From an uncultured Nitrososphaerota archaeon (GTDB lineage: Archaea; Thermoproteota; EX4484-205; JAAOZO01): a stretch of DNA of 64,000 nt. Shown one piece after another: positions 869-14,555 of this stretch (within the stretch, counting starts at the first letter, position 1; every line of letters begins with the position of its first letter). The position numbers and the translations under genes are program-made. A model generated the notes under the pieces. The model made no database searches, was not told the DNA's origin, and was given only the letters and a program-made list of their open reading frames with translations. Location of the stretch: contig CAYOYV010000003.1 of the NCBI GenBank assembly GCA_964408285.1, forward strand, positions 125,067 to 189,066, given 5' to 3'.

Positions 869-1902
869 AAAGTCTGTTCCATGAAGCCTATCAGTTCATG
901 ATCCAGAGGTCTTGTACCTGCAAGTCCTTCGACAATCTCAATGTCCGCGATTCTTGTTCCCCGCAGCACTACCATCCTTCCGAATCTCCTCTGATGAGCA
1001 AGTTCAGCGGCGAGAAGCCCGAATCTAGTTGCCAACACCCTGTCAAACGCTATAGGTTTCCGGCCTCTGATTATGTGTCCCGGGATGACAGCTCTGGTCT
1101 CGTAACCAGTCTGTTCTTCTATCTCCTTCGCAAGGAATTCTCCAATGCCACCAAGCATCACATTTCCGAATTGGTCCCTTTTAACATCCCTGGTAATGGC
1201 CCCCGCATAATCCATTATTAGGGCGCCCTCCGCAACAACAATCAGAAGAGAGGCTTTTCCCCCCGCCTTTTTCTTCTTTATGAAGTCTATGACCTCTGGG
1301 ATTCTGAAGGGTTTCTCCGGCACCAATATAAGGTCCGCACCTGCGGCAATCCCGGAATAGGCCGCTATCCACCCTGCGTTCCTTCCCATGATCTCAGCAA
1401 CCATTATTCTCTCATGGGAAGCACCGGTTGTTCTCAAATTATCTAGGGCATCTGCTGCCTCCTCAACCGCAGTGAGGAATCCAAATGTGAAGTCCGTTCC
1501 GGGGACATCATTGTCTATGGTCTTTGGAACGCCTATGACACTTACTCCCATTTCGACAAGTTTCTTCGCAACGCTGAGCGTGTCGTCTCCGCCCACTGCT
1601 ATAAGGCAGTCAAGATTCAGTTTGGTCATGTTCTCCAATATCTTCCCAATACCGCCAGGGCTTTTCAGAGGGTTAGTTCTCGACGTAAGCAGGATCGTTC
1701 CCGCTTGATCCATGATATCTCCCACGTCGTCGTATCTGAGGTTGACCGTTTCGACATTGTCTAGCAATCCATTCCAGCCTCTTCTGATCCCGATGACCTG
1801 GTGGCCGAGGTCACCTGCCCTCTTGACCACTGCTCTAATGACAGCATTTAGTCCTGGTGCGTCTCCACCTCCTGTGAGAATCCCAATTCGCATATTCTTC
1901 AA
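865..1902 (-). CDS. pfkA: PfkA-family 6-phosphofructokinase, probably PPi-dependent
   Basis: GILTGGGDAPGLN, GGDDT, PKTIDND and EIMGRNAGW motifs. Confidence 0.93.
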   Translation of the reverse strand: MKNMRIGILTGGGDAPGLNAVIRAVVKRAGDLGHQVIGIRRGWNGLLDNVETVNLRYDDVGDIMDQAGTILLTSRTNPLKSPGGIGKILENMTKLNLDCLIAVGGDDTLSVAKKLVEMGVSVIGVPKTIDNDVPGTDFTFGFLTAVEEAADALDNLRTTGASHERIMVAEIMGRNAGWIAAYSGIAAGADLILVPEKPFRIPEVIDFIKKKKAGGKASLLIVVAEGALIMDYAGAITRDVKRDQFGNVMLGGIGEFLAKEIEEQTGYETRAVIPGHIIRGRKPIAFDRVLATRFGLLAAELAHQRRFGRMVVLRGTRIADIEIVEGLAGTRPLDHELIGFMEQTF

Positions 1903-2013
1903 AGCACAATCAAGCCAAGTCGTTGGGAGGATTTATCCTTAAGCCCGCGAATTGAGATCATTCTCAGGGCGATGCCCGGATGAACCTCGCGAAAGAACTA
2001 AAAGCGATTTGGT

Positions 2014-2820
2014 GTGCCCTTCTACATGGTCGGCTGGGTGCTATTGGATTTAGATGGGGTCATATACAGGGGGGATTCGCCCATCGAAGGATCCAGAGAG
2101 GCCATAGAGTCCCTCAATCGCAACGGCTTCAAAACTAGATACCTGACCAACAATGCCACACTGACCGGAGAGGAATTCGGCCAGAAGTTGGCCAGAATGG
2201 GAATCAGAGTCAGGGCAGATGACATCTTGACCTCGGGGAAAGCTGCCTCGATGTACCTGAAGGAAAGAAAAGGCCAGTTGCTCATCTATCCTGTCGGAAG
2301 TAAGGCGCTTGAGTTCGAGTTAAGGCAGCAAGGTCACAGAATAGTGGATTGGAGAGAAGCGCAAGCGGTCGTGGTATGCCTTGATTTCAATTTTGACTAT
2401 GCCAAGTTGGCGAACTCGTCAAGCGCCATTAGAAACGGAGCTCTTTTCGTGGCAACCAACAGGGATTCGGTCATCCCGGTGGAGGGGGGCCTAATTCCTG
2501 GAGCAGGGGCGATCATATCGGCAATAGAAGAAGCTTCAGGCGCAAGGGCCATGTCAATAGGCAAGCCTGAGACGGAAATTTTCTCAATCGGGTCTCGAAT
2601 CTGGGGGCTCTCGGAGAAGGACGCAATAGTAGTAGGAGATAGACTAGATACGGACATGGCGCTAGGGAATAGAATTGGAGCCATCACAGCCCTTGTCCTT
2701 ACGGGATTCACCTCCTCCTCTGATGTAACCCTGGCCAAGTCTTCAGAGGAAGTGCCCAAGTATGTTTTCAAGAATCTCAGGGGATTCTCTGAATCCCTCA
2801 TAGAAGGAAAAATCGTTTAA
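2014..2820 (+). CDS. HAD-IIA (NagD-like) phosphatase
   Basis: DLDGVIY, LTNN, IGKP and VGDRLDTDM motifs. Confidence 0.92.
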   Translation: MPFYMVGWVLLDLDGVIYRGDSPIEGSREAIESLNRNGFKTRYLTNNATLTGEEFGQKLARMGIRVRADDILTSGKAASMYLKERKGQLLIYPVGSKALEFELRQQGHRIVDWREAQAVVVCLDFNFDYAKLANSSSAIRNGALFVATNRDSVIPVEGGLIPGAGAIISAIEEASGARAMSIGKPETEIFSIGSRIWGLSEKDAIVVGDRLDTDMALGNRIGAITALVLTGFTSSSDVTLAKSSEEVPKYVFKNLRGFSESLIEGKIV

Positions 2821-2844
2821 TTTCTGCCTTCGTTCCTTGCAAGG

Positions 2845-3129
2845 ATGGCAAAGCCCGAAGTCAGGGCTAGAATAAGGGTCTTCGGTCGAGTCCAAGGCGT
2901 TTTCTTCCGACAGAATGCCCTGCGCTATGCCATGAAGATCGGGATTAGAGGCTATATACGAAACCTCGAGGACGGTTCCCTCGAAGCTGTCTACCAAGGT
3001 CCAAAAGACAAGGTGGATCAGATGCTCCAATGGACGAAAAGAGGTCCCCCCTATGCCTTCGTATCCAGCTATAGAATACGATGGGAAAATCCGGCGGATG
3101 ATTTCTCGGCCTTTGAGGTCATGTACTGA
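2845..3129 (+). CDS. acyP: Acylphosphatase
   Basis: GRVQGVFFR, GYIRNLEDGSLE and GPP motifs; 94 aa. Confidence 0.95.
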   Translation: MAKPEVRARIRVFGRVQGVFFRQNALRYAMKIGIRGYIRNLEDGSLEAVYQGPKDKVDQMLQWTKRGPPYAFVSSYRIRWENPADDFSAFEVMY

Positions 3130-5379: not shown

Positions 5380-6057
5380 ATGCTTGGTACTATTGCCAAC
5401 GCCCTTGCGATAGTTGCAGGCTCAATTATGGGGCTCTCGCTGGGGAAGCATCTTTCAGAGAGGCAGATTGATTCGTCAAGAAAGGCAATGGGCCTAGTAG
5501 TAGGTTACATCGGGATAAGAATGCTGTCAGAAGAGGCTTCTTTGTTGGCGACTCTCCTTGCTCTTGTCGTTGGCACAATTCTAGGGGAAGCCTTAGACAT
5601 TGACTCATTTGTGAAGAGGATCGGAGACAGGCTAAAGTCGGCGGTCAAGAACGAGTCCGATTTCAGTGCTGGCTTCTATTCGTCAACGATACTCTTCCTG
5701 ACCGGCCCAATGGCCATATTGGGTCCGATAAGGGAAGCAACTAGCGGAGATCTGTCCTTGCTGTTAAGCAAATCTTTCCTCGACGGTTTCTGCTCGCTCA
5801 CAATGTCAGCTTCTATGGGTGTTTCTGTGGCCTTCTCATCAGTGCCAGTGATTATCTATCAGGGATGTATGTATCTGCTCGGAATGGAGCTAGGACAATT
5901 CCTGCCAGCCAAGATGATAGGTGCCGTGACTGCAACAGGAGGCGCGCTGGTGCTGGCTATAGGATTGAATCTGCTTGATGTAACAGATCTGAGAGTGGGT
6001 AACATGATTCCTTGTCTGATCATCGTTGCGATTCTAACTTCCTTTCCTCTACCATAG
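5380..6057 (+). CDS. DUF554 (YdfK-like) membrane protein
   Basis: MLGTIANALAIVAGS start, GPMAILG, KSFLDG, IIYQG and LRVGNMIP motifs; start moved from 5305 to ATG 5380. Confidence 0.88.
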   Translation: MLGTIANALAIVAGSIMGLSLGKHLSERQIDSSRKAMGLVVGYIGIRMLSEEASLLATLLALVVGTILGEALDIDSFVKRIGDRLKSAVKNESDFSAGFYSSTILFLTGPMAILGPIREATSGDLSLLLSKSFLDGFCSLTMSASMGVSVAFSSVPVIIYQGCMYLLGMELGQFLPAKMIGAVTATGGALVLAIGLNLLDVTDLRVGNMIPCLIIVAILTSFPLP

Positions 6058-6063
6058 GACACC

Positions 6064-6071
6064 TTTAAATA
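6064..6071 (+). promoter_or_regulatory. Putative TATA box
   Basis: TTTAAATA about 30 nt upstream of the TTG start at 6098, consistent with a leaderless transcript. Confidence 0.45.
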
Positions 6072-6097
6072 TCAGTGGGGACGCTCACAACGCAATT

Positions 6098-6832
6098 TTG
6101 CCAAGGAAGCTCCTGCTTTTTCTCGTCCTTGCACTGTCATCGGCCATCTTCCTAGTGACGATCGCGAGAGCAGAGGACGATCATGTCTACACCTTCTCCC
6201 CGGAGTTGGTTAAGGAAAGAGACGGCATTATTGTTCTTATAAAACCTCCCGGCATTTCAATAACGGCCATTGTGAACGAGACAAAGGGCTTTGGTCACAT
6301 CCTCCGGATAGCATCTAACGAAACAGCATATGAGATTCCACAATACATGACTCCTCCGTATTCTCTCGTGGAGCTCTATCCAAATGGGACAATATATGCA
6401 CTGACAATATCGTTTAGGACATACTCAACGGCATCGGTTCATTATGGTGCCATAACGATAAACAGGAACAACTATCCGGGCAGGGAATACGTCCGACTGA
6501 GCGACATCTATTATTTTGCCCGCTTCTCCTCTGTTTCAGGTCTGCCGCCCGGAGATTACACACTCCGATTTCAGTTCGTTATCCAGAAGAGTTCCTCCTC
6601 TTCAGGGCCGTTTGAGGGTATCGTTATTCCTCCCTTTATCAACATGATCGCCTTTCTTGTGATTGCGGCGGGAGCCATCTATGCTGAGAGCTTCCTCTTG
6701 GTCGTATCATTCTTCAAGACCAGAACGGGCGGTCTTAGCAACTATTGGAAGGTAGGAATATTGGCATCCGTGCTCATTTCAGGGTATCTTCTGTATTGGG
6801 CATATTCGCATCTTGTCGTTGGCTCAGCCTGA
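6098..6832 (+). CDS. Hypothetical exported protein with two C-terminal TM helices
   Basis: Signal peptide ending in ARA, a beta-rich domain, a poly-Ser linker and two hydrophobic helices. Confidence 0.8.
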   Translation: MPRKLLLFLVLALSSAIFLVTIARAEDDHVYTFSPELVKERDGIIVLIKPPGISITAIVNETKGFGHILRIASNETAYEIPQYMTPPYSLVELYPNGTIYALTISFRTYSTASVHYGAITINRNNYPGREYVRLSDIYYFARFSSVSGLPPGDYTLRFQFVIQKSSSSSGPFEGIVIPPFINMIAFLVIAAGAIYAESFLLVVSFFKTRTGGLSNYWKVGILASVLISGYLLYWAYSHLVVGSA

Positions 6833-6959
6833 TAGCTTCAGAGGGTGCTCGAAATCGCCTCAGCAATCCCATTGGCCATTACTTTGGCCCCCATAAATGA
6901 CAGAATTGTTTTTATGCAGCATGTTAGTAGCTGTCAAAGGATTAGGGTAAAAGCCGGTA

Positions 6960-9659
6960 ATGGTTGAGGCAGAAGAAGAGCAGGAATTCGAGTCTGAATG
7001 GTGGTTTTCCCGGAAGGCGCTTAGGGTCATTTTCGGTCCTCTTCTGTACCTGACTTCCTGGCAATACAGACTATGGCAATTCCTACAACAACCTCCCGAC
7101 ATAAGAAGGAGGAAGGCTGAGTCCGAGGCCAAGAGGATAAGGAAAAGCCACGACTTCCCGACAGTTCAACCCGGTGATGCGGTGGGGAGAGAGAAAGAGT
7201 TCAAACAGGTAATGCTCAGCATCAAGTATCACGTTTTTCGTGACAAAGAGGTCAGAAGATCTGCAACAGCCCTGCCACCGAAGCTGTTCCTTATCAAGGG
7301 GGGAAGCGGGACTGGGAAGACATACTTCGCGGAGGCTGTAATGCGTTGGGCCTTTGAGGAGGGCCTCAACTATGGACTTCTCGTCAACCACGCCTCCCTC
7401 AAGCCTGAGGATGTCTATACAATGTGGTATGGCCAGAGCGCTCAAAGGCTAAGTGAGTTCTTCCAATCAACTTTCATGAAGCCGAGCATAGTCTTAGTTG
7501 ATGAATTCCAGGCGTTCGGTAAGAAGTTCAGCTCCTCAACTGAAGTGGGAATGGAGGAGACTCGCGTCCAGACTGTCTTCCTTGAAAAAGTTGACGAACT
7601 CCAGAAGAGGAATTACAGGACCGTGTTATTCATATCAACAACGAGCATAGAATCCGTGATAGACACGATCAGGAGAAGAGGTGTTGTGGGCACAATAGAT
7701 CTGGACGCTGGAATCAACAGGGAGAACTTGATCAGGATAGCGGCTACGCAGTGCGTGAAGCACGGAATTACACTCAATCCCGAACAAATCGTCGATGGTC
7801 TTGAGGAGTCAATCAGGGCGATCGGGGGGACGTCGATCACCCCTGCCGACATTGTAAACGGATTCAACATTGTGATCAACAAGAAGATGCAAGCTTTGGC
7901 AGACTCCCTTGGAGAAGGTCAGGAGAAAGGTGAGGTCAAAATAGGACGAACGGTGACCCTTGAGGATTTCAGATTGGCTGCGAAATCAGTCAAGTCATAC
8001 TCGGCCGAAGAAAGGACTGAAGCAGCGAAGAGGGCCGCCCAGAGGGTTCGACCCCAAGAGACCTACGAGCACGTCGGCGGCCTCAAGGGAATCAAGGAGG
8101 AAGTCATAAAGGAGCTTTCTGTTGCTCTGAACGCTGAGCTGGCTCTCAAGGCGAAATACATACCCCCAAAGGGATTCATCTTCAACGGGCCGCCGGGAAC
8201 GGGTAAGACCCTTCTGGCGAAAGCCATAGCAAGAGAAAACAATGTCTGGTTCTATGAAATAAACGGTCCATCGATACTGCAAGGACTCTACGGCGATCCA
8301 GAGAGAACCATAAGGAATATATTCGAAGATGCCAGGAAGAATTCGCCAGCGATAATATTCTTTGACGAGATAGATTCCATAGCCCCGCGAAGAGGAACAA
8401 CTGATCCCCTCTTGGACCGGGTGACAAGCCAATTGATTACAGAGATAGACGGTTTTGTCCCGTTGACTGGGGTTGTTGTAATAGGAAGCACCAATAGGCT
8501 CGAAGCATTGGACCCAGCACTTCTTGAACGTTTCACCCACCATTTCCAGTTCACGTATCCGAAGAGCATCAATGAGAAGGAGGAAATCGTACAAATCCAT
8601 CTAGGCCAATACTTGGACATAGCTCATGAGGAAGTGACAACAAGCGCTGTCATGGAGCTCTTTAGCGGCAGAGTACTTAGCCCTCGAAAAATAGCAGATG
8701 TGATAAACGAATCAAATAGACTTAGGACAAAGGAATTGGATGGTGCCAGGGTATTGGTGAAGGCTTTCGATGACGGACCCAAGGAGCTATCAAAGGCCAG
8801 ATCGATCTACTCTCAGGAGGAGCACCGCCTCTCGGAGGTACTAGGGGTCTCAGAGGACTTTGAAATCTTGCTGCCCTTATTGCGTGACATAGATCCTTCG
8901 AGCTATCCACTTCGGCTCTATCATATCCGAAAGGCGATTGAGCAAAGCTCTGAGGAGACCGTGGAAGAAGCAAGGAAAATGATATCAAGCACTGTAAGAG
9001 CGGAAACCGCCGAGATCGGCAAAGCTTACGGACTGGTCGCTCTGGGCGAAGGCTCCGCCGGCGGTTTCGTGACAGCAGTTGAGGTGGTCGTCAATCGCAT
9101 GGGTTCAGGGCAAGTGAGGGTAATAGGTAGCGAATTCGGAGAAAGCATCAAGGCAAGCGCAGAGGATGCATTCGTTTTCATCAACTCGATATCGGACTGG
9201 AGATACAAGAACTACGACTTGTTCGTGGAATTGGTGACTCCTGCAAAAGGAATGGAGAGGGCCCCGGCTGGCTTCGGGATTACCGCAGCACCAGTTTCAG
9301 GTCCATCAGCAGGAATCGCAATATCGGTCGCAATGATATCTTCACTGACCGGTCTCAAGGTTGATCCGACTGTTGTCGTTACTGGAGCGATCACGGCCAA
9401 AGGCGAGGTATGGCCAGTTGGTGGCATGGATTACAGGGGAATGGGAAAAGTGGAGGCCGCTTTGGCTGATAAGTACGTCCGGAAACTAGTCATTCCTGAA
9501 TACAACTTGAGGAAGCTGAACGAAAGCGGAGGTCTCGAGGCCCTTCAGAAAGTAGGCATAGATGTGAGGGGGGTGAAGGATGTAGTGGAGGCAGCAATAG
9601 AATGCCTGGAGGGTCAGATAGACAAGCAAGCCCTGACCAAGGCCCTGCTTCATGGCTAG
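6960..9659 (+). CDS. Tandem Cdc48-like AAA ATPase fused to a C-terminal Lon (S16) protease domain
   Basis: D1: GGSGTGKT, MWYG, VLVDEFQ. D2: GPPGTGKT, FFDEIDS, GSTNRLEALDPALLERF. C-terminus: GPSAG..TGAI..GEVWPVGG..K..LVIPEYN. Confidence 0.88.
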   Translation: MVEAEEEQEFESEWWFSRKALRVIFGPLLYLTSWQYRLWQFLQQPPDIRRRKAESEAKRIRKSHDFPTVQPGDAVGREKEFKQVMLSIKYHVFRDKEVRRSATALPPKLFLIKGGSGTGKTYFAEAVMRWAFEEGLNYGLLVNHASLKPEDVYTMWYGQSAQRLSEFFQSTFMKPSIVLVDEFQAFGKKFSSSTEVGMEETRVQTVFLEKVDELQKRNYRTVLFISTTSIESVIDTIRRRGVVGTIDLDAGINRENLIRIAATQCVKHGITLNPEQIVDGLEESIRAIGGTSITPADIVNGFNIVINKKMQALADSLGEGQEKGEVKIGRTVTLEDFRLAAKSVKSYSAEERTEAAKRAAQRVRPQETYEHVGGLKGIKEEVIKELSVALNAELALKAKYIPPKGFIFNGPPGTGKTLLAKAIARENNVWFYEINGPSILQGLYGDPERTIRNIFEDARKNSPAIIFFDEIDSIAPRRGTTDPLLDRVTSQLITEIDGFVPLTGVVVIGSTNRLEALDPALLERFTHHFQFTYPKSINEKEEIVQIHLGQYLDIAHEEVTTSAVMELFSGRVLSPRKIADVINESNRLRTKELDGARVLVKAFDDGPKELSKARSIYSQEEHRLSEVLGVSEDFEILLPLLRDIDPSSYPLRLYHIRKAIEQSSEETVEEARKMISSTVRAETAEIGKAYGLVALGEGSAGGFVTAVEVVVNRMGSGQVRVIGSEFGESIKASAEDAFVFINSISDWRYKNYDLFVELVTPAKGMERAPAGFGITAAPVSGPSAGIAISVAMISSLTGLKVDPTVVVTGAITAKGEVWPVGGMDYRGMGKVEAALADKYVRKLVIPEYNLRKLNESGGLEALQKVGIDVRGVKDVVEAAIECLEGQIDKQALTKALLHG

Positions 9660-9715
9660 AGGAACTCTAGGAAATTCGTCTTCGTCGAAAAAGGATTTTC
9701 CCATTATGAGGGATC

Positions 9716-12311: not shown

Positions 12312-14555
12312 TCACAATTCGCCTTCAATCTCGCTGACCCTTCTGGCCCTCTTCTGTCTAGCGGATTGCCTCTTCCATAGATTGGCGAAAAGATAGACGA
12401 ATACGATGATCAGCATGCCAGTGATGAAGAGCATTGTCCCCTGGGGTCCTACTTCAGTCGGAGGTTGGGAAGGCCCACCAGGGCCTATCACAACGGGGCT
12501 TACCTTTGCGGCCAGATCTGGCTGCAGAAGTGTCACAGTTGAGACTTCTGTTTGATTGCCCAGACTGTCTCTATAGAATATTAGTGCTTCGAATCCCTTT
12601 CTTATCACGAGTTGCGCGTGGGTTGTCCCGCCCCAAGTGAATGTCACGTTGTTCTTGCTCAGTGGGGAGAAAATAGGTATACATACCGAACCTCCGATCG
12701 TCCATGCCCCGAGACTCACAATGTTCTTGACAATTGATTTATCCAGAGACGTGAAGTTCCAGAATTCAAACGCGGAACTGGAATTCAGGACCACATACTT
12801 GACGAACGAGGGTCTGTCGCCGGTTGTAGGCAATAGTTCAGCAAGTCCGGTGGAATTCCAAGCAATGAGCCTCAAAACCCGTTCATTCACTGCAATGGCC
12901 TCTGGAGATAGATATCGAAGCTTCTCCGTCTCCGCCTGCATCGTGATCGCGTCGAAGCGGAGTTCTGCTGCGGCCAGCCTCAGATCTGCAGCCTTCTTAC
13001 TTATCTCCAGCGTGAAATCAACACTATTGTTGACGCTTGCGAAAAGCATTGATGACATATTTGAGAGCACATTGGAGCTATTCCTGTCAAATACCCCGAT
13101 GCTTTTCAATCCCTCGCCAGCCTTGCTCAGGGCAGCAGACATTGCGACCACCCCTTTCTGCATCTCAGCTAGGGAATCAGAATAGGATTGAAGTGTCTTC
13201 TGAACGTCTGTGGCATTCAACTGAGCTAGAATCCCGTCTATTGTGTCCAGTGATTCAATCATTTCTCCTACTCGCTGATTTCTCTCAGAATTCTGATCAT
13301 AGATCCTACCTACGATGGCTATGCTGGTGAGTATTTGCGTCCTTTGCTGGGGATCTGTCGACGAATTCAGCAAGGCCGTCAAGGTTGAGTTCAATTCAAG
13401 GAGAAGCTCCATTTCCTCCGATTGAGAGTCCAAGATGAATTGGAGCTCGACCTTCTGGAGATATATGGAGTCACGAACGAGTCTTATTGTGGCATTGATC
13501 CTTTCCGTGGATGCCTCCTTCATAAGTGAATCCAATGAGAACCTAAGCTGATCCAGAGTTGTTGCAGTATTATTCACTTGCCTGCTTATCATTATGAGTG
13601 ACTTCCCTATTTCGTCTGTAGCTCGCCCTGTTGCATTCATCGCTGAGCTCAGGACCTTCAGATATTCAGCGAGTCCTGCAATAATTGCGGCCGAGGAATT
13701 GACTGATCGCCAAATGCCTTCTAGGAAATCCGCTGTCGCGTTCAGACTGAGAGCTCTTGCCTTCATGGAACTTGCGAATGGCCCGTATAGGTCAGAAACA
13801 TAAGAGATCACGATGGGCGATAGGGTAGCTATGCCCCATTCCGACAACTTCGAGACTCTTACCTTCAATCGCATTTCAACGGAATCCTTGACCAGAATCG
13901 TCCATTGATGTTCTCCGGAGCTTCTTGTCGAGTTTGGTTTTGGGATTGTGTCCATCACTTCGAAATACCTAGTATCTATTGCGACCATTACCATGAGGGG
14001 GATGGGGATCCTCCATGAACCATTTGACTTCCCCCAATTGGAGTTCAATATCTTGACCGTCCAATCCAACTGGTCGCCTCGCTTAATCGTTATGAATCTG
14101 TAGGCCCCTATATTCGTCACATTCGGCGCCAATCCATTAACAAGCAGATTCTGGACTGCAACGAAAGGCAGCTGGGTAGGTCTGGCCGTAATCTCATAGG
14201 TGGACTTGCCTGGCGCACAATTGAGCAACAAAGTCCATTCGGATACCTTTCCTAGGTCTGTGGAGCTGAGGACTTTCACACTTGGTGACGATATCCTTAC
14301 GGAATCAAACCCAATGTCATGGAACGTTAACTTAATGACATGTGAGGTGGAATTCATGCCTGGATTTTCTGCCGTAAGGGAATACGAGAACGACTCTGCT
14401 TGCTGTCCTGAAATCGGATCTAGCTGAAGCGAGTATATGCTCTCGCCCTTCAGACTGATCATGCTTTGGTCAGATTCACATGATCCTCGGCCGAAAACCG
14501 ATGAGATTAGGAGCACAGCAACGAGGAATATCGCGTTTCGCTCCGTTCCTCTCAT
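12312..14555 (-). CDS. Large membrane-anchored extracellular protein with a central coiled coil
   Basis: N-terminal signal peptide, beta-rich ends, a long heptad region, and a C-terminal TM helix with a basic tail; overlaps the ABC ATPase stop (ATGA). Confidence 0.8.
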   Translation of the reverse strand: MRGTERNAIFLVAVLLISSVFGRGSCESDQSMISLKGESIYSLQLDPISGQQAESFSYSLTAENPGMNSTSHVIKLTFHDIGFDSVRISSPSVKVLSSTDLGKVSEWTLLLNCAPGKSTYEITARPTQLPFVAVQNLLVNGLAPNVTNIGAYRFITIKRGDQLDWTVKILNSNWGKSNGSWRIPIPLMVMVAIDTRYFEVMDTIPKPNSTRSSGEHQWTILVKDSVEMRLKVRVSKLSEWGIATLSPIVISYVSDLYGPFASSMKARALSLNATADFLEGIWRSVNSSAAIIAGLAEYLKVLSSAMNATGRATDEIGKSLIMISRQVNNTATTLDQLRFSLDSLMKEASTERINATIRLVRDSIYLQKVELQFILDSQSEEMELLLELNSTLTALLNSSTDPQQRTQILTSIAIVGRIYDQNSERNQRVGEMIESLDTIDGILAQLNATDVQKTLQSYSDSLAEMQKGVVAMSAALSKAGEGLKSIGVFDRNSSNVLSNMSSMLFASVNNSVDFTLEISKKAADLRLAAAELRFDAITMQAETEKLRYLSPEAIAVNERVLRLIAWNSTGLAELLPTTGDRPSFVKYVVLNSSSAFEFWNFTSLDKSIVKNIVSLGAWTIGGSVCIPIFSPLSKNNVTFTWGGTTHAQLVIRKGFEALIFYRDSLGNQTEVSTVTLLQPDLAAKVSPVVIGPGGPSQPPTEVGPQGTMLFITGMLIIVFVYLFANLWKRQSARQKRARRVSEIEGEL

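Follow-up and report, generated by a model that had tools for sequence, protein, structure and literature searches.

In ATP-dependent proteases, motors and peptidases are paired in a small number of fixed ways. The window analysed here, a stretch of 64,000 nucleotides from an uncultured Nitrososphaerota archaeon (contig CAYOYV010000003.1 of the 46-contig, metagenome-type assembly GCA_964408285.1), holds a gene in which two AAA modules of the classical clade are joined to a Lon-type peptidase domain. This raises the question of what kind of enzyme such a fusion encodes and whether it falls outside the known pairings. The features that bear on this question are the following, with positions counted from the first letter of the window:

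6098..6832, + strand: gene of the candidate partner, a 244-aa membrane protein with an N-terminal signal/transmembrane helix, an ectodomain built as a beta-sandwich and a hairpin of two helices at the C-terminus
6960..9659, + strand: AAA-AAA-Lon fusion gene, a stop-free open reading frame of 899 aa plus stop codon (translation, Pfam and NCBIfam matches, full-length homologs)
6960..7262, + strand: N-terminal region, residues 1-101, which is acidic at its start and continues with a helical segment rich in aromatic residues (13-43) and a basic helix (46-61)
7263..7994, + strand: D1, a diverged classical AAA module, residues ~102-345 (second stretch of the Pfam AAA match)
7299-7322, + strand: D1 Walker A GGSGTGKT, residues 114-121
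7422-7433, + strand: MWYG of the D1 pore loop TMWYG, residues 154-158
7500-7505, + strand: DE of the D1 Walker B VDEF, residues 180-183
7671-7679, + strand: D1 RRR, residues 238-240
8037..8969, + strand: D2, a typical classical AAA module whose helical lid is extended, residues ~360-670 (Pfam AAA at 407-532)
8187-8210, + strand: D2 Walker A GPPGTGKT, residues 410-417
8283-8294, + strand: D2 pore loop GLYG, residues 442-445
8364-8369, + strand: D2 Walker B DE (D469, E470)
8493-8495, + strand: D2 sensor-1 N512
8529-8531, + strand: D2 arginine R524
Residues 511-525: D2 motif TNRLEALDPALLERF, present in the translation
8991..9656, + strand: Lon S16 proteolytic domain, residues ~678-899 (Pfam Lon_C)
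9300-9314, + strand: GPSAG, residues 781-785, with Ser783 (codon 9306-9308)
Residues 808-809 and 821-822: Thr808-Gly809 and GG of the Lon domain
9447-9449, + strand: Lys830 in VGGMDYRGMGK, 47 residues after Ser783

A preliminary description of the locus had read the gene as two classic-clade AAA modules followed by a Lon proteolytic domain, and the open reading frame, all quoted motifs and the Pfam matches agree with this reading. Pfam detects two stretches of AAA (whole-protein E 1.1e-53) and Lon_C at residues 680-856 (E 1.9e-17); the latter match reaches 64 bits against a curated cut-off of 21.1, which makes the domain, as judged from its sequence, a member of the S16 family. In the homolog clusters listed, the sources name the protein only "AAA family ATPase" and none mentions a protease, an annotation gap that is corrected here. 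Overall, the preliminary account of the architecture and of an uncharacterised protease is supported, with the enzyme activity being predicted from the sequence. The AAA-AAA-Lon protein of this sediment archaeon looks like an undescribed build of energy-dependent protease.

We regard it as probable, and as the best reading of the data, that the protein is a hexameric ATP-dependent serine protease of an undescribed build that works with a membrane partner. One chain would contribute to two stacked classical-clade AAA rings (D1 and D2) and to a ring of Lon-type Ser-Lys peptidase domains and, if Lon, FtsH and Cdc48 are a guide, six chains would form a three-tier barrel. Fuelled by ATP, the aromatic pore loops in both AAA modules would seize and unfold the substrate, whose chain would then be threaded into a chamber lined by Ser783 and Lys830 and cut there. 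Since the fusion protein lacks a transmembrane segment of its own and is encoded beside a small membrane protein, the most likely arrangement would be a two-part machine at the cytoplasmic face of the membrane. In this machine the partner may serve as anchor or adaptor with its beta-sandwich facing outward, and the protease may dock through the aromatic and the basic helices at its N-terminus.

The linkage to the membrane protein is a new finding of the present analysis. A homolog of the 244-aa neighbour lies directly 5' of the fusion gene in 19 of 19 close loci, co-directional in 11 and divergent in eight. Moreover, the neighbour is found in 32 of 401 genomes and in six taxonomic families. 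All 32 carry the close form of the fusion, which occurs in 33 genomes altogether; none of the other 368 genomes has the neighbour. The neighbour has no Pfam or PADLOC family. Its predicted structure (pLDDT 84.9) leaves only an N-terminus of about four residues and a short loop facing the cytoplasm. Beyond a beta-sandwich and a helical hairpin, its fold class was identified neither by a fold search, which returned only generic matches to helical hairpins (best Z 8.1) and, for residues 27-165, an Ig-like match (Z 6.8), nor in a protein atlas, which gave no usable match. In a distant branch of the family, another kind of membrane protein, alike in its general layout, stands directly upstream and overlaps the start of the fusion gene in 13 of 13 loci. 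This protein has a conserved cytoplasmic tail (consensus ...KWRGWYELIDEE) that ends just before the start codon of the protease, and hhalign detected no homology between the two kinds of upstream protein (probability 1.3%). At the Micrarchaeota locus, the list of open reading frames has only a divergent one of 89 aa beside the start of the fusion. Because the membrane-protein neighbour co-occurs so strictly, the enzyme is probably not fully the "self-contained ATP-dependent protease" that had been proposed.

The Trp-rich N-terminus of the fusion protein that had been noted earlier is real: four Trp residues fall within the first 43 positions, and nine of the 31 residues of segment 13-43 are aromatic. 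The model of helices 14-61 has a pLDDT of 84-88, at least 61 of the 67 family members conserve W15 and R22, and residues 1-95 have no NCBIfam match. Segment 13-43 carries a net charge of +3 and has an Eisenberg mean hydrophobicity of 0.15, which is too low for a transmembrane helix, and at a Kyte-Doolittle threshold of 1.6 no transmembrane segment was found anywhere in the fusion protein. A complex prediction with residues 1-105 of the fusion and the 244-aa neighbour gave a score of 0.02 (mark 0.32), which speaks neither for nor against binding. We infer a membrane location of the fusion protein solely from gene linkage.

The same linkage could be read differently. The enzyme might be a dedicated signalling protease and the upstream membrane protein its specific substrate or sensor, so that an outside signal received by the beta-sandwich would expose the cytoplasmic part, as is the case for anti-sigma factors that are degraded on cue. 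The strict one-to-one pairing with an ectodomain-bearing membrane protein would suit this explanation, as would the conserved tail of the distant-branch neighbour, which resembles a docking or degradation tag, and the eight divergent loci out of 19, which fit a regulator-target pair with a common control region. However, neither a transcription factor nor any other output gene accompanies the pair in a conserved manner, and the window-type neighbour, according to its model, has very little that faces the cytoplasm. Furthermore, the fusion is near-universal in its order, as expected of a housekeeping enzyme: it occurs in 23 of 26 genomes, the three without it being 57%, 82% and 90% complete. 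We therefore consider a dedicated signalling role rather unlikely, though the most serious of the alternatives.

The reading as an ATP-dependent protease with a membrane partner presupposes that the Lon domain cuts. Ser783 and Lys830 align to the catalytic residues of a LonB domain whose structure is solved: PDB sequence matches were obtained to A. fulgidus LonB (1.8e-11) and to LonA (1e-10) with Ser and Lys aligned, and HMMER, bridging a four-residue gap, places K830 on the catalytic Lys in the protease domain of A. fulgidus LonB. The unusual Ser-Lys spacing of 47 residues that had been pointed out is confirmed, and its source is a four-residue insertion common to the family. Because this insertion lies just before the Lys, the geometry of the active site may differ from that of Lon. 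In an alignment of 67 members reaching down to 29% identity, Ser783 is invariant (67/67), and Lys830 and Thr808 are kept in 66 and 65 members, respectively; Lys830, Thr808, GPSAG and the GG motif are each retained in at least 64 of the 67, which span 29-67% identity. Thus, the catalytic Ser-Lys dyad is predicted to be present and is conserved, in keeping with the earlier proposal that the two residues form a dyad. In fold comparisons (VIA), the domain matches LonA (4ypm, Z 22.7, rmsd 2.1 over 180 residues), LonB (1z0e, Z 22.6) and E. coli Lon (1rr9, Z 21.9), at 28-30% identity to these true Lon protease domains. As a single piece, D2 plus protease (366-898) aligns to entire chains of LonB (Z 24.6), LonC (Z 23.8) and LonA (Z 22.5) over 409-416 residues.

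Lon-like domains also exist in RadA/Sms, ComM and BrxL, where they are not known to have protease activity. By analogy, the domain of the fusion might be a non-catalytic, ring-forming scaffold and the protein an unfoldase or remodeller that does not cleave. Fold matches to the C-terminal domain of BrxL (Z 18.8), to RadA (Z 18.4) and to ComM (Z 16.7) lend some weight to this idea, but the matches to true Lon protease domains are better (Z 21.9-22.7), and an invariant Ser together with near-invariant Lys, Thr808, GPSAG and GG would not be expected of a mere scaffold. Moreover, the NCBIfam Lon models (E 3.5e-22) rank far above, RadA and BrxL being absent among the 25 matches listed. A scaffold role is hence improbable.

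For the preferred reading of an energy-dependent protease, the two ATPase modules would have to be working motors. The classic clade (clade 3) has a short helix before the pore loop, no pre-sensor-1 hairpin and an arginine in the second region of homology, which sets it apart from the HCLR clade (clade 5) (PMC7973254). In the predicted model of the fusion, helices 149-152 and 436-440 stand before the pore loops of D1 and D2, and both modules have short loops and no hairpin between alpha-3 and beta-4. According to this model, both modules have the classic-clade layout and not the HCLR type that is Lon's own. The relative placement of the domains is uncertain because the pTM of the model is only 0.52. 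The tandem (residues 64-700) matches the folds of VAT and p97, and the whole tandem also those of Rix7 and NVL. D2 is the more typical module. It shares 43% and 39% identity with D1 and D2 of the Cdc48 encoded in the same genome, its fold matches the FtsH ATPase (VIA, 4ww0; Z 26.6, rmsd 1.6 over 246 residues), and K416, D469, E470, N512 and R524 are each conserved in 67 of 67 members. One of the two usual D2 arginines is missing from the window's protein, since it reads "LLE--RF" in place of the canonical "RPGRFDR", which deep members retain. D1 shares only 27% identity with D1 of the same Cdc48 and by itself reaches 38 bits against the CDC48 model. The second region of homology of D1 had been called degenerate, which holds in so far as D1 is diverged and has a Thr at sensor-1, where the majority of the family has Asn, but not for RRR 238-240, whose residues are kept in 63, 65 and 66 of the 67 members, respectively. 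Other key positions of D1 are likewise conserved (K120 and D181 in 67/67, E182 in 64/67, W156 in 61/67, G158 in 66/67), and the pore-loop glycines of D1 and D2 are present in 66 of 67 members each.

The ATPase part also brings up a possible link to anti-virus defence, in which the fusion would resemble the IetAS ATPase-protease pair or the Lon-like BrxL of BREX. Indeed, PADLOC matches IetA (E 1.2e-35) and TRIP13, and the NCBIfam model IteA_antiphage scores 111 bits. However, these matches cover only the generic D2, which by itself scores higher and nearly equally against CDC48 (163 bits), PAN (146) and FtsH (139). No BrxL or Lon-type defence model matches the fusion, the neighbour matches none in PADLOC, and no defence genes were seen beside the fusion. 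In contrast to patchy defence islands, the gene is single-copy, has a fixed context and is near-universal in its order, which makes a defence function very improbable.

The protease reading also fits the way in which the family is distributed. The architecture is found in 118 of 120 homolog clusters listed, with Lon_C at ~900 aa and from many sources, and the two clusters without Lon_C are labelled partial. In addition to these clusters, 28 genomes give unbroken matches across residues ~3-890. Of 401 genomes of the phylum, 57 have a member. A Micrarchaeota MAG also has a member (P0139), which shows the same domains, as does a member of 37% identity (P0122); a search seeded with the latter found one Bathyarchaeia locus at 38% identity, and a search from an alignment, which keyed on the generic Walker A pattern, returned ordinary AAA proteins. 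One member carries an intein exactly within the D2 P-loop and another an extra peptidase domain (BSP, E 9.5e-15); like the near-universal occurrence in the order, these are signs that the gene is under selection. In two other sediment runs, single contigs bridge both junctions, covering 7738-9556 and 8211-9700 at 99% identity or more with neither joints nor indels. No RNA run was listed for positions 6000-9700 of the window. That a Cdc48-like gene was joined to a separate Lon gene by misassembly or gene calling, for which no favourable point was found, is refuted by these clusters, genomes and junction-spanning contigs and has next to no probability.

In the window's genome, the fusion is the sole gene bearing Lon_C, and the only classical AAA proteins are Cdc48 and the fusion itself. 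A separate true Cdc48 (1068.7 bits) and 20S subunits are also encoded. In families f1 to f3, the fusion is the sole Lon_C gene in every genome with a Lon_C match. It was also considered that the fusion replaces LonB. This idea is unsupported because LonB-like genes are rare throughout the phylum (38 of 401 genomes at E<=1e-40, none above the curated cut-off) and because 170 of the 401 genomes have no Lon_C gene whatever; it was dropped, as three of the 57 fusion genomes (G073, G081 and G337) carry both. The other neighbours in the window, encoding DUF554, GHL10, metallophosphoesterase and GNAT proteins, are not conserved beside the fusion.

The family breaks the usual pairing in that its Lon peptidase is combined with a classic-clade double motor and not with an HCLR module. 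It can be regarded as a natural experiment on the interchangeability of motors and proteolytic chambers and on how a tandem unfoldase may hand its substrate over to a covalently attached chamber. Moreover, no Lon-type protease other than the fusion was found in a widespread and abundant group of sediment archaea, whose genomes considered here have a proteasome and Cdc48 but neither PAN nor LonB, and the strictly linked membrane partner provides a concrete targeting hypothesis for the machine. The other basic designs of energy-dependent proteases are Clp/HslUV, Lon, FtsH and the proteasome with its ATPases. We tentatively suggest, as a possibility in which our confidence is low, that the three-ring AAA-AAA-Lon barrel is a fifth design, in which two genes form one unit, the second encoding a membrane protein with an ectodomain. 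The protease domain of the barrel would go back to an ancestor resembling LonA and would have been transferred to a double motor of the Cdc48 type, and the unit might act in membrane-proximal quality control or outside-in signalling in Bathyarchaeia and relatives without LonB and PAN. In a domain tree (FastTree), the sole LonA included branches beside the protease domains of the fusion, with weak support (0.58).

Full-text literature searches found no description of an AAA-AAA-Lon fusion. Six forms of Lon_C architecture, none with two AAA modules, were distinguished in the main-text account of a survey from 2008, whose supplementary tables might list more (PMC2605481). The view that the protein does not belong to a characterised Lon subfamily is borne out by its scores, which lie far below the curated cut-offs of LonB (TIGR00764; 58 bits, cut-off 516.6), the LonC-type model (52.7 bits, cut-off 679) and LonA (endopeptidase La, TIGR00763; 78.7 bits, cut-off 608). 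Like LonB, the fusion combines an ATPase and an S16 Ser-Lys protease in one chain; its D2 and protease together align to the whole of T. onnurineus LonB (Z 24.6 over 416 residues; example structures of LonB are 3k1j and 1z0e), and both enzymes probably act at the membrane. However, LonB has one HCLR module with inserted transmembrane helices, whereas the fusion has two classic-clade modules and no transmembrane segment, so that any membrane link would come via a separate gene. Moreover, its serine motif is SGPSAG and not the [E/D]GDSA[S/T] ascribed to LonB in the survey text consulted, where the GPSA type is that of LonA (PMC2605481). Indeed, LonA shares the GPSA-type motif and the protease fold and is the best Lon-type NCBIfam match of the fusion, although this match covers only the protease part (674-855). 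The fusion differs from LonA by lacking the LON N-terminal domain (Pfam), by having a classic-clade tandem in place of a single HCLR module, and by a Ser-Lys spacing of 47 residues as compared to 43, owing to the insertion before the Lys.

Cdc48, VAT and p97 (TIGR01243) are the archaeal partner of the 20S proteasome and possess a free C-terminal tail motif for docking. The label "Cdc48-like" is appropriate for the tandem of two classic AAA modules, which is collinear with profile positions 162-634 and has the aromatic pore loop in D1, but it applies only loosely, since the score of 203.3 bits stays below the cut-off of 802.65 and D1 is strongly diverged. As had been stated, the Cdc48 N-domain is absent: Pfam gave no CDC48_N or CDC48_2 match, and the NCBIfam CDC48 alignment begins at position 162, past the N-domain. 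In place of the free tail, the C-terminus bears its own protease. FtsH (TIGR01241) is, to our knowledge, the one well-known enzyme in which a classic-clade AAA module and its protease are joined in cis. It has the closest fold to D2, and both enzymes are likely to work at the membrane surface. In contrast to FtsH, the fusion has a serine protease of family S16 and not a zinc protease of family M41, two AAA rings and not one, and no N-terminal transmembrane helices of its own; the FtsH model matches only its ATPase part (residues 357-587, 162.6 bits, cut-off 600), and Peptidase_M41 is absent among the best 25 of its 33 Pfam matches. RadA/Sms, ComM and BrxL likewise have the Lon_C fold joined to other types of ATPase (Z 16.7-18.8). 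Their ATPases resemble RecA, MCM or Mg-chelatase and have DNA as their substrate, whereas those of the fusion are of the protein-unfolding type and are followed by a Lon domain with a conserved, predicted catalytic dyad.

The fusion and the membrane protein encoded next to it correspond to two open reading frames of the window:
6098..6832, forward strand: membrane protein of 244 aa, directly upstream of the fusion gene
6960..9659, forward strand: the fusion, an open frame of 899 residues
Pfam assigns two stretches of the fusion to the AAA family (E 1.1e-53, best stretch 407-532), referred to as modules D1 and D2, and residues 680-856 to the Lon proteolytic domain, Lon_C (E 1.9e-17). The motifs quoted in the preliminary description were all recovered from the translation at the positions assigned to them, and Ser783 and Lys830 are indeed 47 residues apart. 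The NCBIfam model of CDC48 aligns collinearly with residues 56-547 and begins at profile position 162; thus, the fusion has no N-domain. With 203 bits, this match lies below the curated cut-off of 803, and the protease part scores 79, 58 and 53 bits with the LonA, LonB and LonC-type models, respectively, all far under their cut-offs. D2 shares 43% identity with D1 and 39% with D2 of the genome's own Cdc48; for D1 of the fusion, the identity to either Cdc48 module is just 27-28%. Since D2 alone scores 163 bits with CDC48, 146 with PAN and 139 with FtsH, the designation Cdc48-like used in the preliminary description is the nearest label, albeit by a small margin. Residues 1-95 match no family and no transmembrane segment was found in the fusion. 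Segment 13-43 (29% aromatic, net charge of +3) precedes a basic helix and would suit an interfacial or protein-docking element.

The upstream membrane protein belongs to no Pfam or PADLOC family. In its structural model (pLDDT 84.9), an N-terminal helix precedes a beta-sandwich (28-163), and a helical hairpin (180-241) forms the C-terminal part. The conservation of this neighbour is a new observation. A homolog lies on the 5' side of the fusion at 16 of 19 loci of the close form according to blastp, and at all 19 according to a profile search; it is co-directional at 11 and divergent at 8 of them. Among 401 sampled genomes of the phylum, the neighbour family occurs in 32, all within the 33 genomes carrying the close form, and in none of the 368 others. 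The 33rd genome (G129), without the neighbour, carries a fragment of the fusion only. In the 32 genomes, copies adjoin the start of the fusion by coordinates. The pair has been kept over six families and through an inversion, although related genomes are not independent. In one genome, the adjoining copy of the neighbour gene is accompanied by another, unlinked one (G085:C6:44962-45669, E 4.1e-62). Moreover, a different ORF lies directly upstream of the fusion in the distant branch and overlaps its start at 13/13 loci (L020-L030, L038 and L039; e.g. L020:3187-4008). It encodes a signal peptide, an ectodomain of about 130 residues, three transmembrane helices and a conserved cytoplasmic tail; two loci, L021 and L024, hold the transmembrane part alone (124 and 134 aa). 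The tail at the end of the protein (…A/GKWRGWYELIDEE) overlaps the start codon of the protease, which suggests that translation of the two is coupled and that the tail is a tag for docking or degradation. Homology between the two kinds of neighbour is not detectable (hhalign probability 1.3%). At a Micrarchaeota locus (L124), a divergent 89-aa ORF (2616-2885, reverse strand) is nearest to the fusion start, followed by a 264-aa ORF (1450-2244, reverse strand). The window also contains a 747-aa ORF (12312..14555, reverse strand) whose product is hydrophobic at the N-terminus and again in a stretch close to the C-terminus and contains many N-x-S/T strings; it may be a surface glycoprotein.

The analysis shows the component parts and their conservation, the folds and the linkage of the two genes. 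Beyond this, we infer that the fusion would assemble into a hexamer with stacked D1, D2 and Lon rings, in which the aromatic pore loops would thread the substrate in an ATP-driven manner into the chamber of Ser783 and Lys830. The product of the upstream gene would contact the complex and hold or address it at the membrane's cytoplasmic face. Alternatively, the fusion could be a dedicated signalling protease and the linked neighbour its substrate, a reading that concerns the role rather than the chemistry and that we consider unlikely. That the Lon-like domain of the fusion is a non-catalytic scaffold is quite improbable; over 67 aligned family members (alignment A2), Ser783 and Gly822 are present in all 67, Lys830 in 66 and Thr808 in 65, and in P0135, the sole member without Lys830, the serine motif is degraded as well. 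In D1, according to the same alignment, the Walker A Lys120 and the Walker B Asp181 are found in 67/67, Glu182 in 64/67, the pore-loop residues Trp156 and Gly158 in 61/67 and 66/67, and Arg238-240 in 63, 65 and 66 of the 67 members. In D2, Walker A, the Walker B Asp-Glu, the sensor-1 Asn512 and Arg524 are each present in 67/67 and the pore-loop Gly445 in 66/67. The fusion of the window has Thr228 where the majority of members hold the sensor-1 Asn, and 'LLE--RF' in D2 at the site at which deep members retain 'RPGRFDR'. Participation in a defence system is very improbable; the PADLOC matches of the fusion are to generic ATPases only. An artefact, such as the misassembled junction considered in the preliminary description, has a negligible probability: among the 120 top-ranking homolog clusters listed, 118 have Lon_C at about 900 residues and the other two are labelled partial, residues 3-890, approximately, are matched without interruption in 28 further genomes, and contigs of other sediment metagenomes, one covering 7738-9556 and another 8211-9700, align at >=99% identity and bridge both the D1/D2 and the D2/protease junction with 0 joints and 0 indels.

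The fusion family is present in 57/401 genomes of the phylum sample. The close form (57-67% identity) accounts for 33 genomes of families f1, f2, f3, f26, f30 and part of f19, and the distant form (36-38% identity) for 24 genomes of f22, f36, f38 and parts of f11 and f29; the remaining genomes match solely via ordinary Cdc48 (about 1e-40). In the order to which the window belongs, 23 genomes out of 26 carry the fusion, and completeness is 57%, 82% and 90% in the three that lack it. When 1.84 billion representatives were searched exhaustively, about 25 single-stretch full-length relatives with identities down to 29% were obtained, including a protein of the same domains from a Candidatus Micrarchaeota MAG (P0139). 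Close members originate from sources labelled Bathyarchaeia, Thermoproteota, Brockarchaeota and Marsarchaeota, and their product names are just 'AAA family ATPase', 'SpoVK/Ycf46/Vps4 family ATPase' or 'transitional endoplasmic reticulum ATPase'. In one close homolog (P0006, 1261 aa, 64% identity), an intein (PF14528, PF14890) interrupts the Walker A loop of D2 precisely between GPPG and TGKT. Another family member (P0134, 1120 aa) carries at its C-terminus an additional BSP peptidase domain (PF04450, E 9.5e-15) with a HEIDH string, giving the order AAA-AAA-Lon-BSP. The match at G143:C214:21833-24491 is split into adjacent pieces (residues 3-259 and 270-885), the fusion at G073:C41:7018-9699 has one in-frame TGA and the neighbour matches in G047 and G111 have one TGA each; these may reflect sequencing error, pseudogenes or recoding.

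In the genome of the window, which measures 1.82 Mb and is 93.7% complete, the fusion is the single Lon_C gene and no LonB exceeds the threshold. The genome encodes a true Cdc48 (1069 bits) and three 20S proteasome subunits, PAN was not found in it, and a D2 profile retrieves only Cdc48 and the fusion as classical AAA proteins. Some Lon_C gene exists in 231/401 genomes of the phylum and none in 170/401; in f1-f3, each genome with a Lon_C match has exactly one, the fusion. Since LonB-like genes occur in only 38/401 genomes and three genomes carry both, phyletic complementarity between LonB and the fusion is not claimed. Besides the fusion, the phylum has at least five further classes of Lon_C genes:
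stand-alone proteins of about 300 aa
proteins of about 570-690 aa whose Lon_C domain lies in their N-terminal part
LonB-like proteins of about 750 aa with a GPSAG motif (416 bits, under the cut-off)
proteins of about 800 aa with EGDSAS
a LonA-type protein in genome G218

An AlphaFold model of the fusion, built with the 67-row alignment, has a mean pLDDT of 82 and a pTM of 0.52. Its Foldseek matches (p97, Cdc48, Rix7 and NVL) cover the tandem ATPase only. In an exhaustive VIA search, residues 68-700 matched VAT (Z 24.8) and D2 matched the FtsH ATPase (Z 26.6, with an rmsd of 1.6 across 246 residues). In the same search, the protease domain matched the LonA structure 4ypm (Z 22.7 and 30% identity, with an rmsd of 2.1 across 180 residues), 1z0e of A. 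fulgidus LonB (Z 22.6) and 1rr9 of E. coli Lon (Z 21.9). Furthermore, residues 366-898 matched as one unit whole LonB 3k1j (Z 24.6 over 416 residues), LonC 4fw9 (Z 23.8) and LonA 7fid (Z 22.5); no solved chain in the fold searches spans all three modules. In a protease-domain tree (FastTree, 42 domains, 187 columns, midpoint root), all 22 fusion domains group separately from the phylum's Lon_C genes of four other classes. The single sequence of LonA type (L131; TIGR00763, 445 bits) nests among the fusion domains in a clade of weak support (0.58), a hint that the protease domain may have had a LonA-like origin.

In line with the preliminary description, which had not recognised the architecture as characterised, a full-text literature search, with subscription journals largely outside its reach, found no description of a double-AAA-Lon protease; a match to 'fused to Lon' was false and read 'fused to longin'. 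As far as the accessible part of a 2008 survey of Lon_C architectures extends, none has two AAA modules (PMC2605481). The same part distinguishes a LonA-type serine motif from that of the LonB type, [E/D]GDSA[S/T] (PMC2605481); the SGPSAG of the fusion is of the LonA and not of the LonB type. The Classic clade 3 layout is described, in the part of the source available, as a short helix ahead of the pore loop without a hairpin ahead of sensor 1, and the ATPase module of Lon is placed in HCLR clade 5 (PMC7973254). In the model, both ATPase modules of the fusion have the short helix directly ahead of the pore loop (149-152 and 436-440) and no hairpin ahead of sensor 1. Unlike Lon, the fusion combines two modules of predicted Classic clade 3 layout with a Lon proteolytic domain, and it would belong among the ATP-dependent self-compartmentalising proteases.
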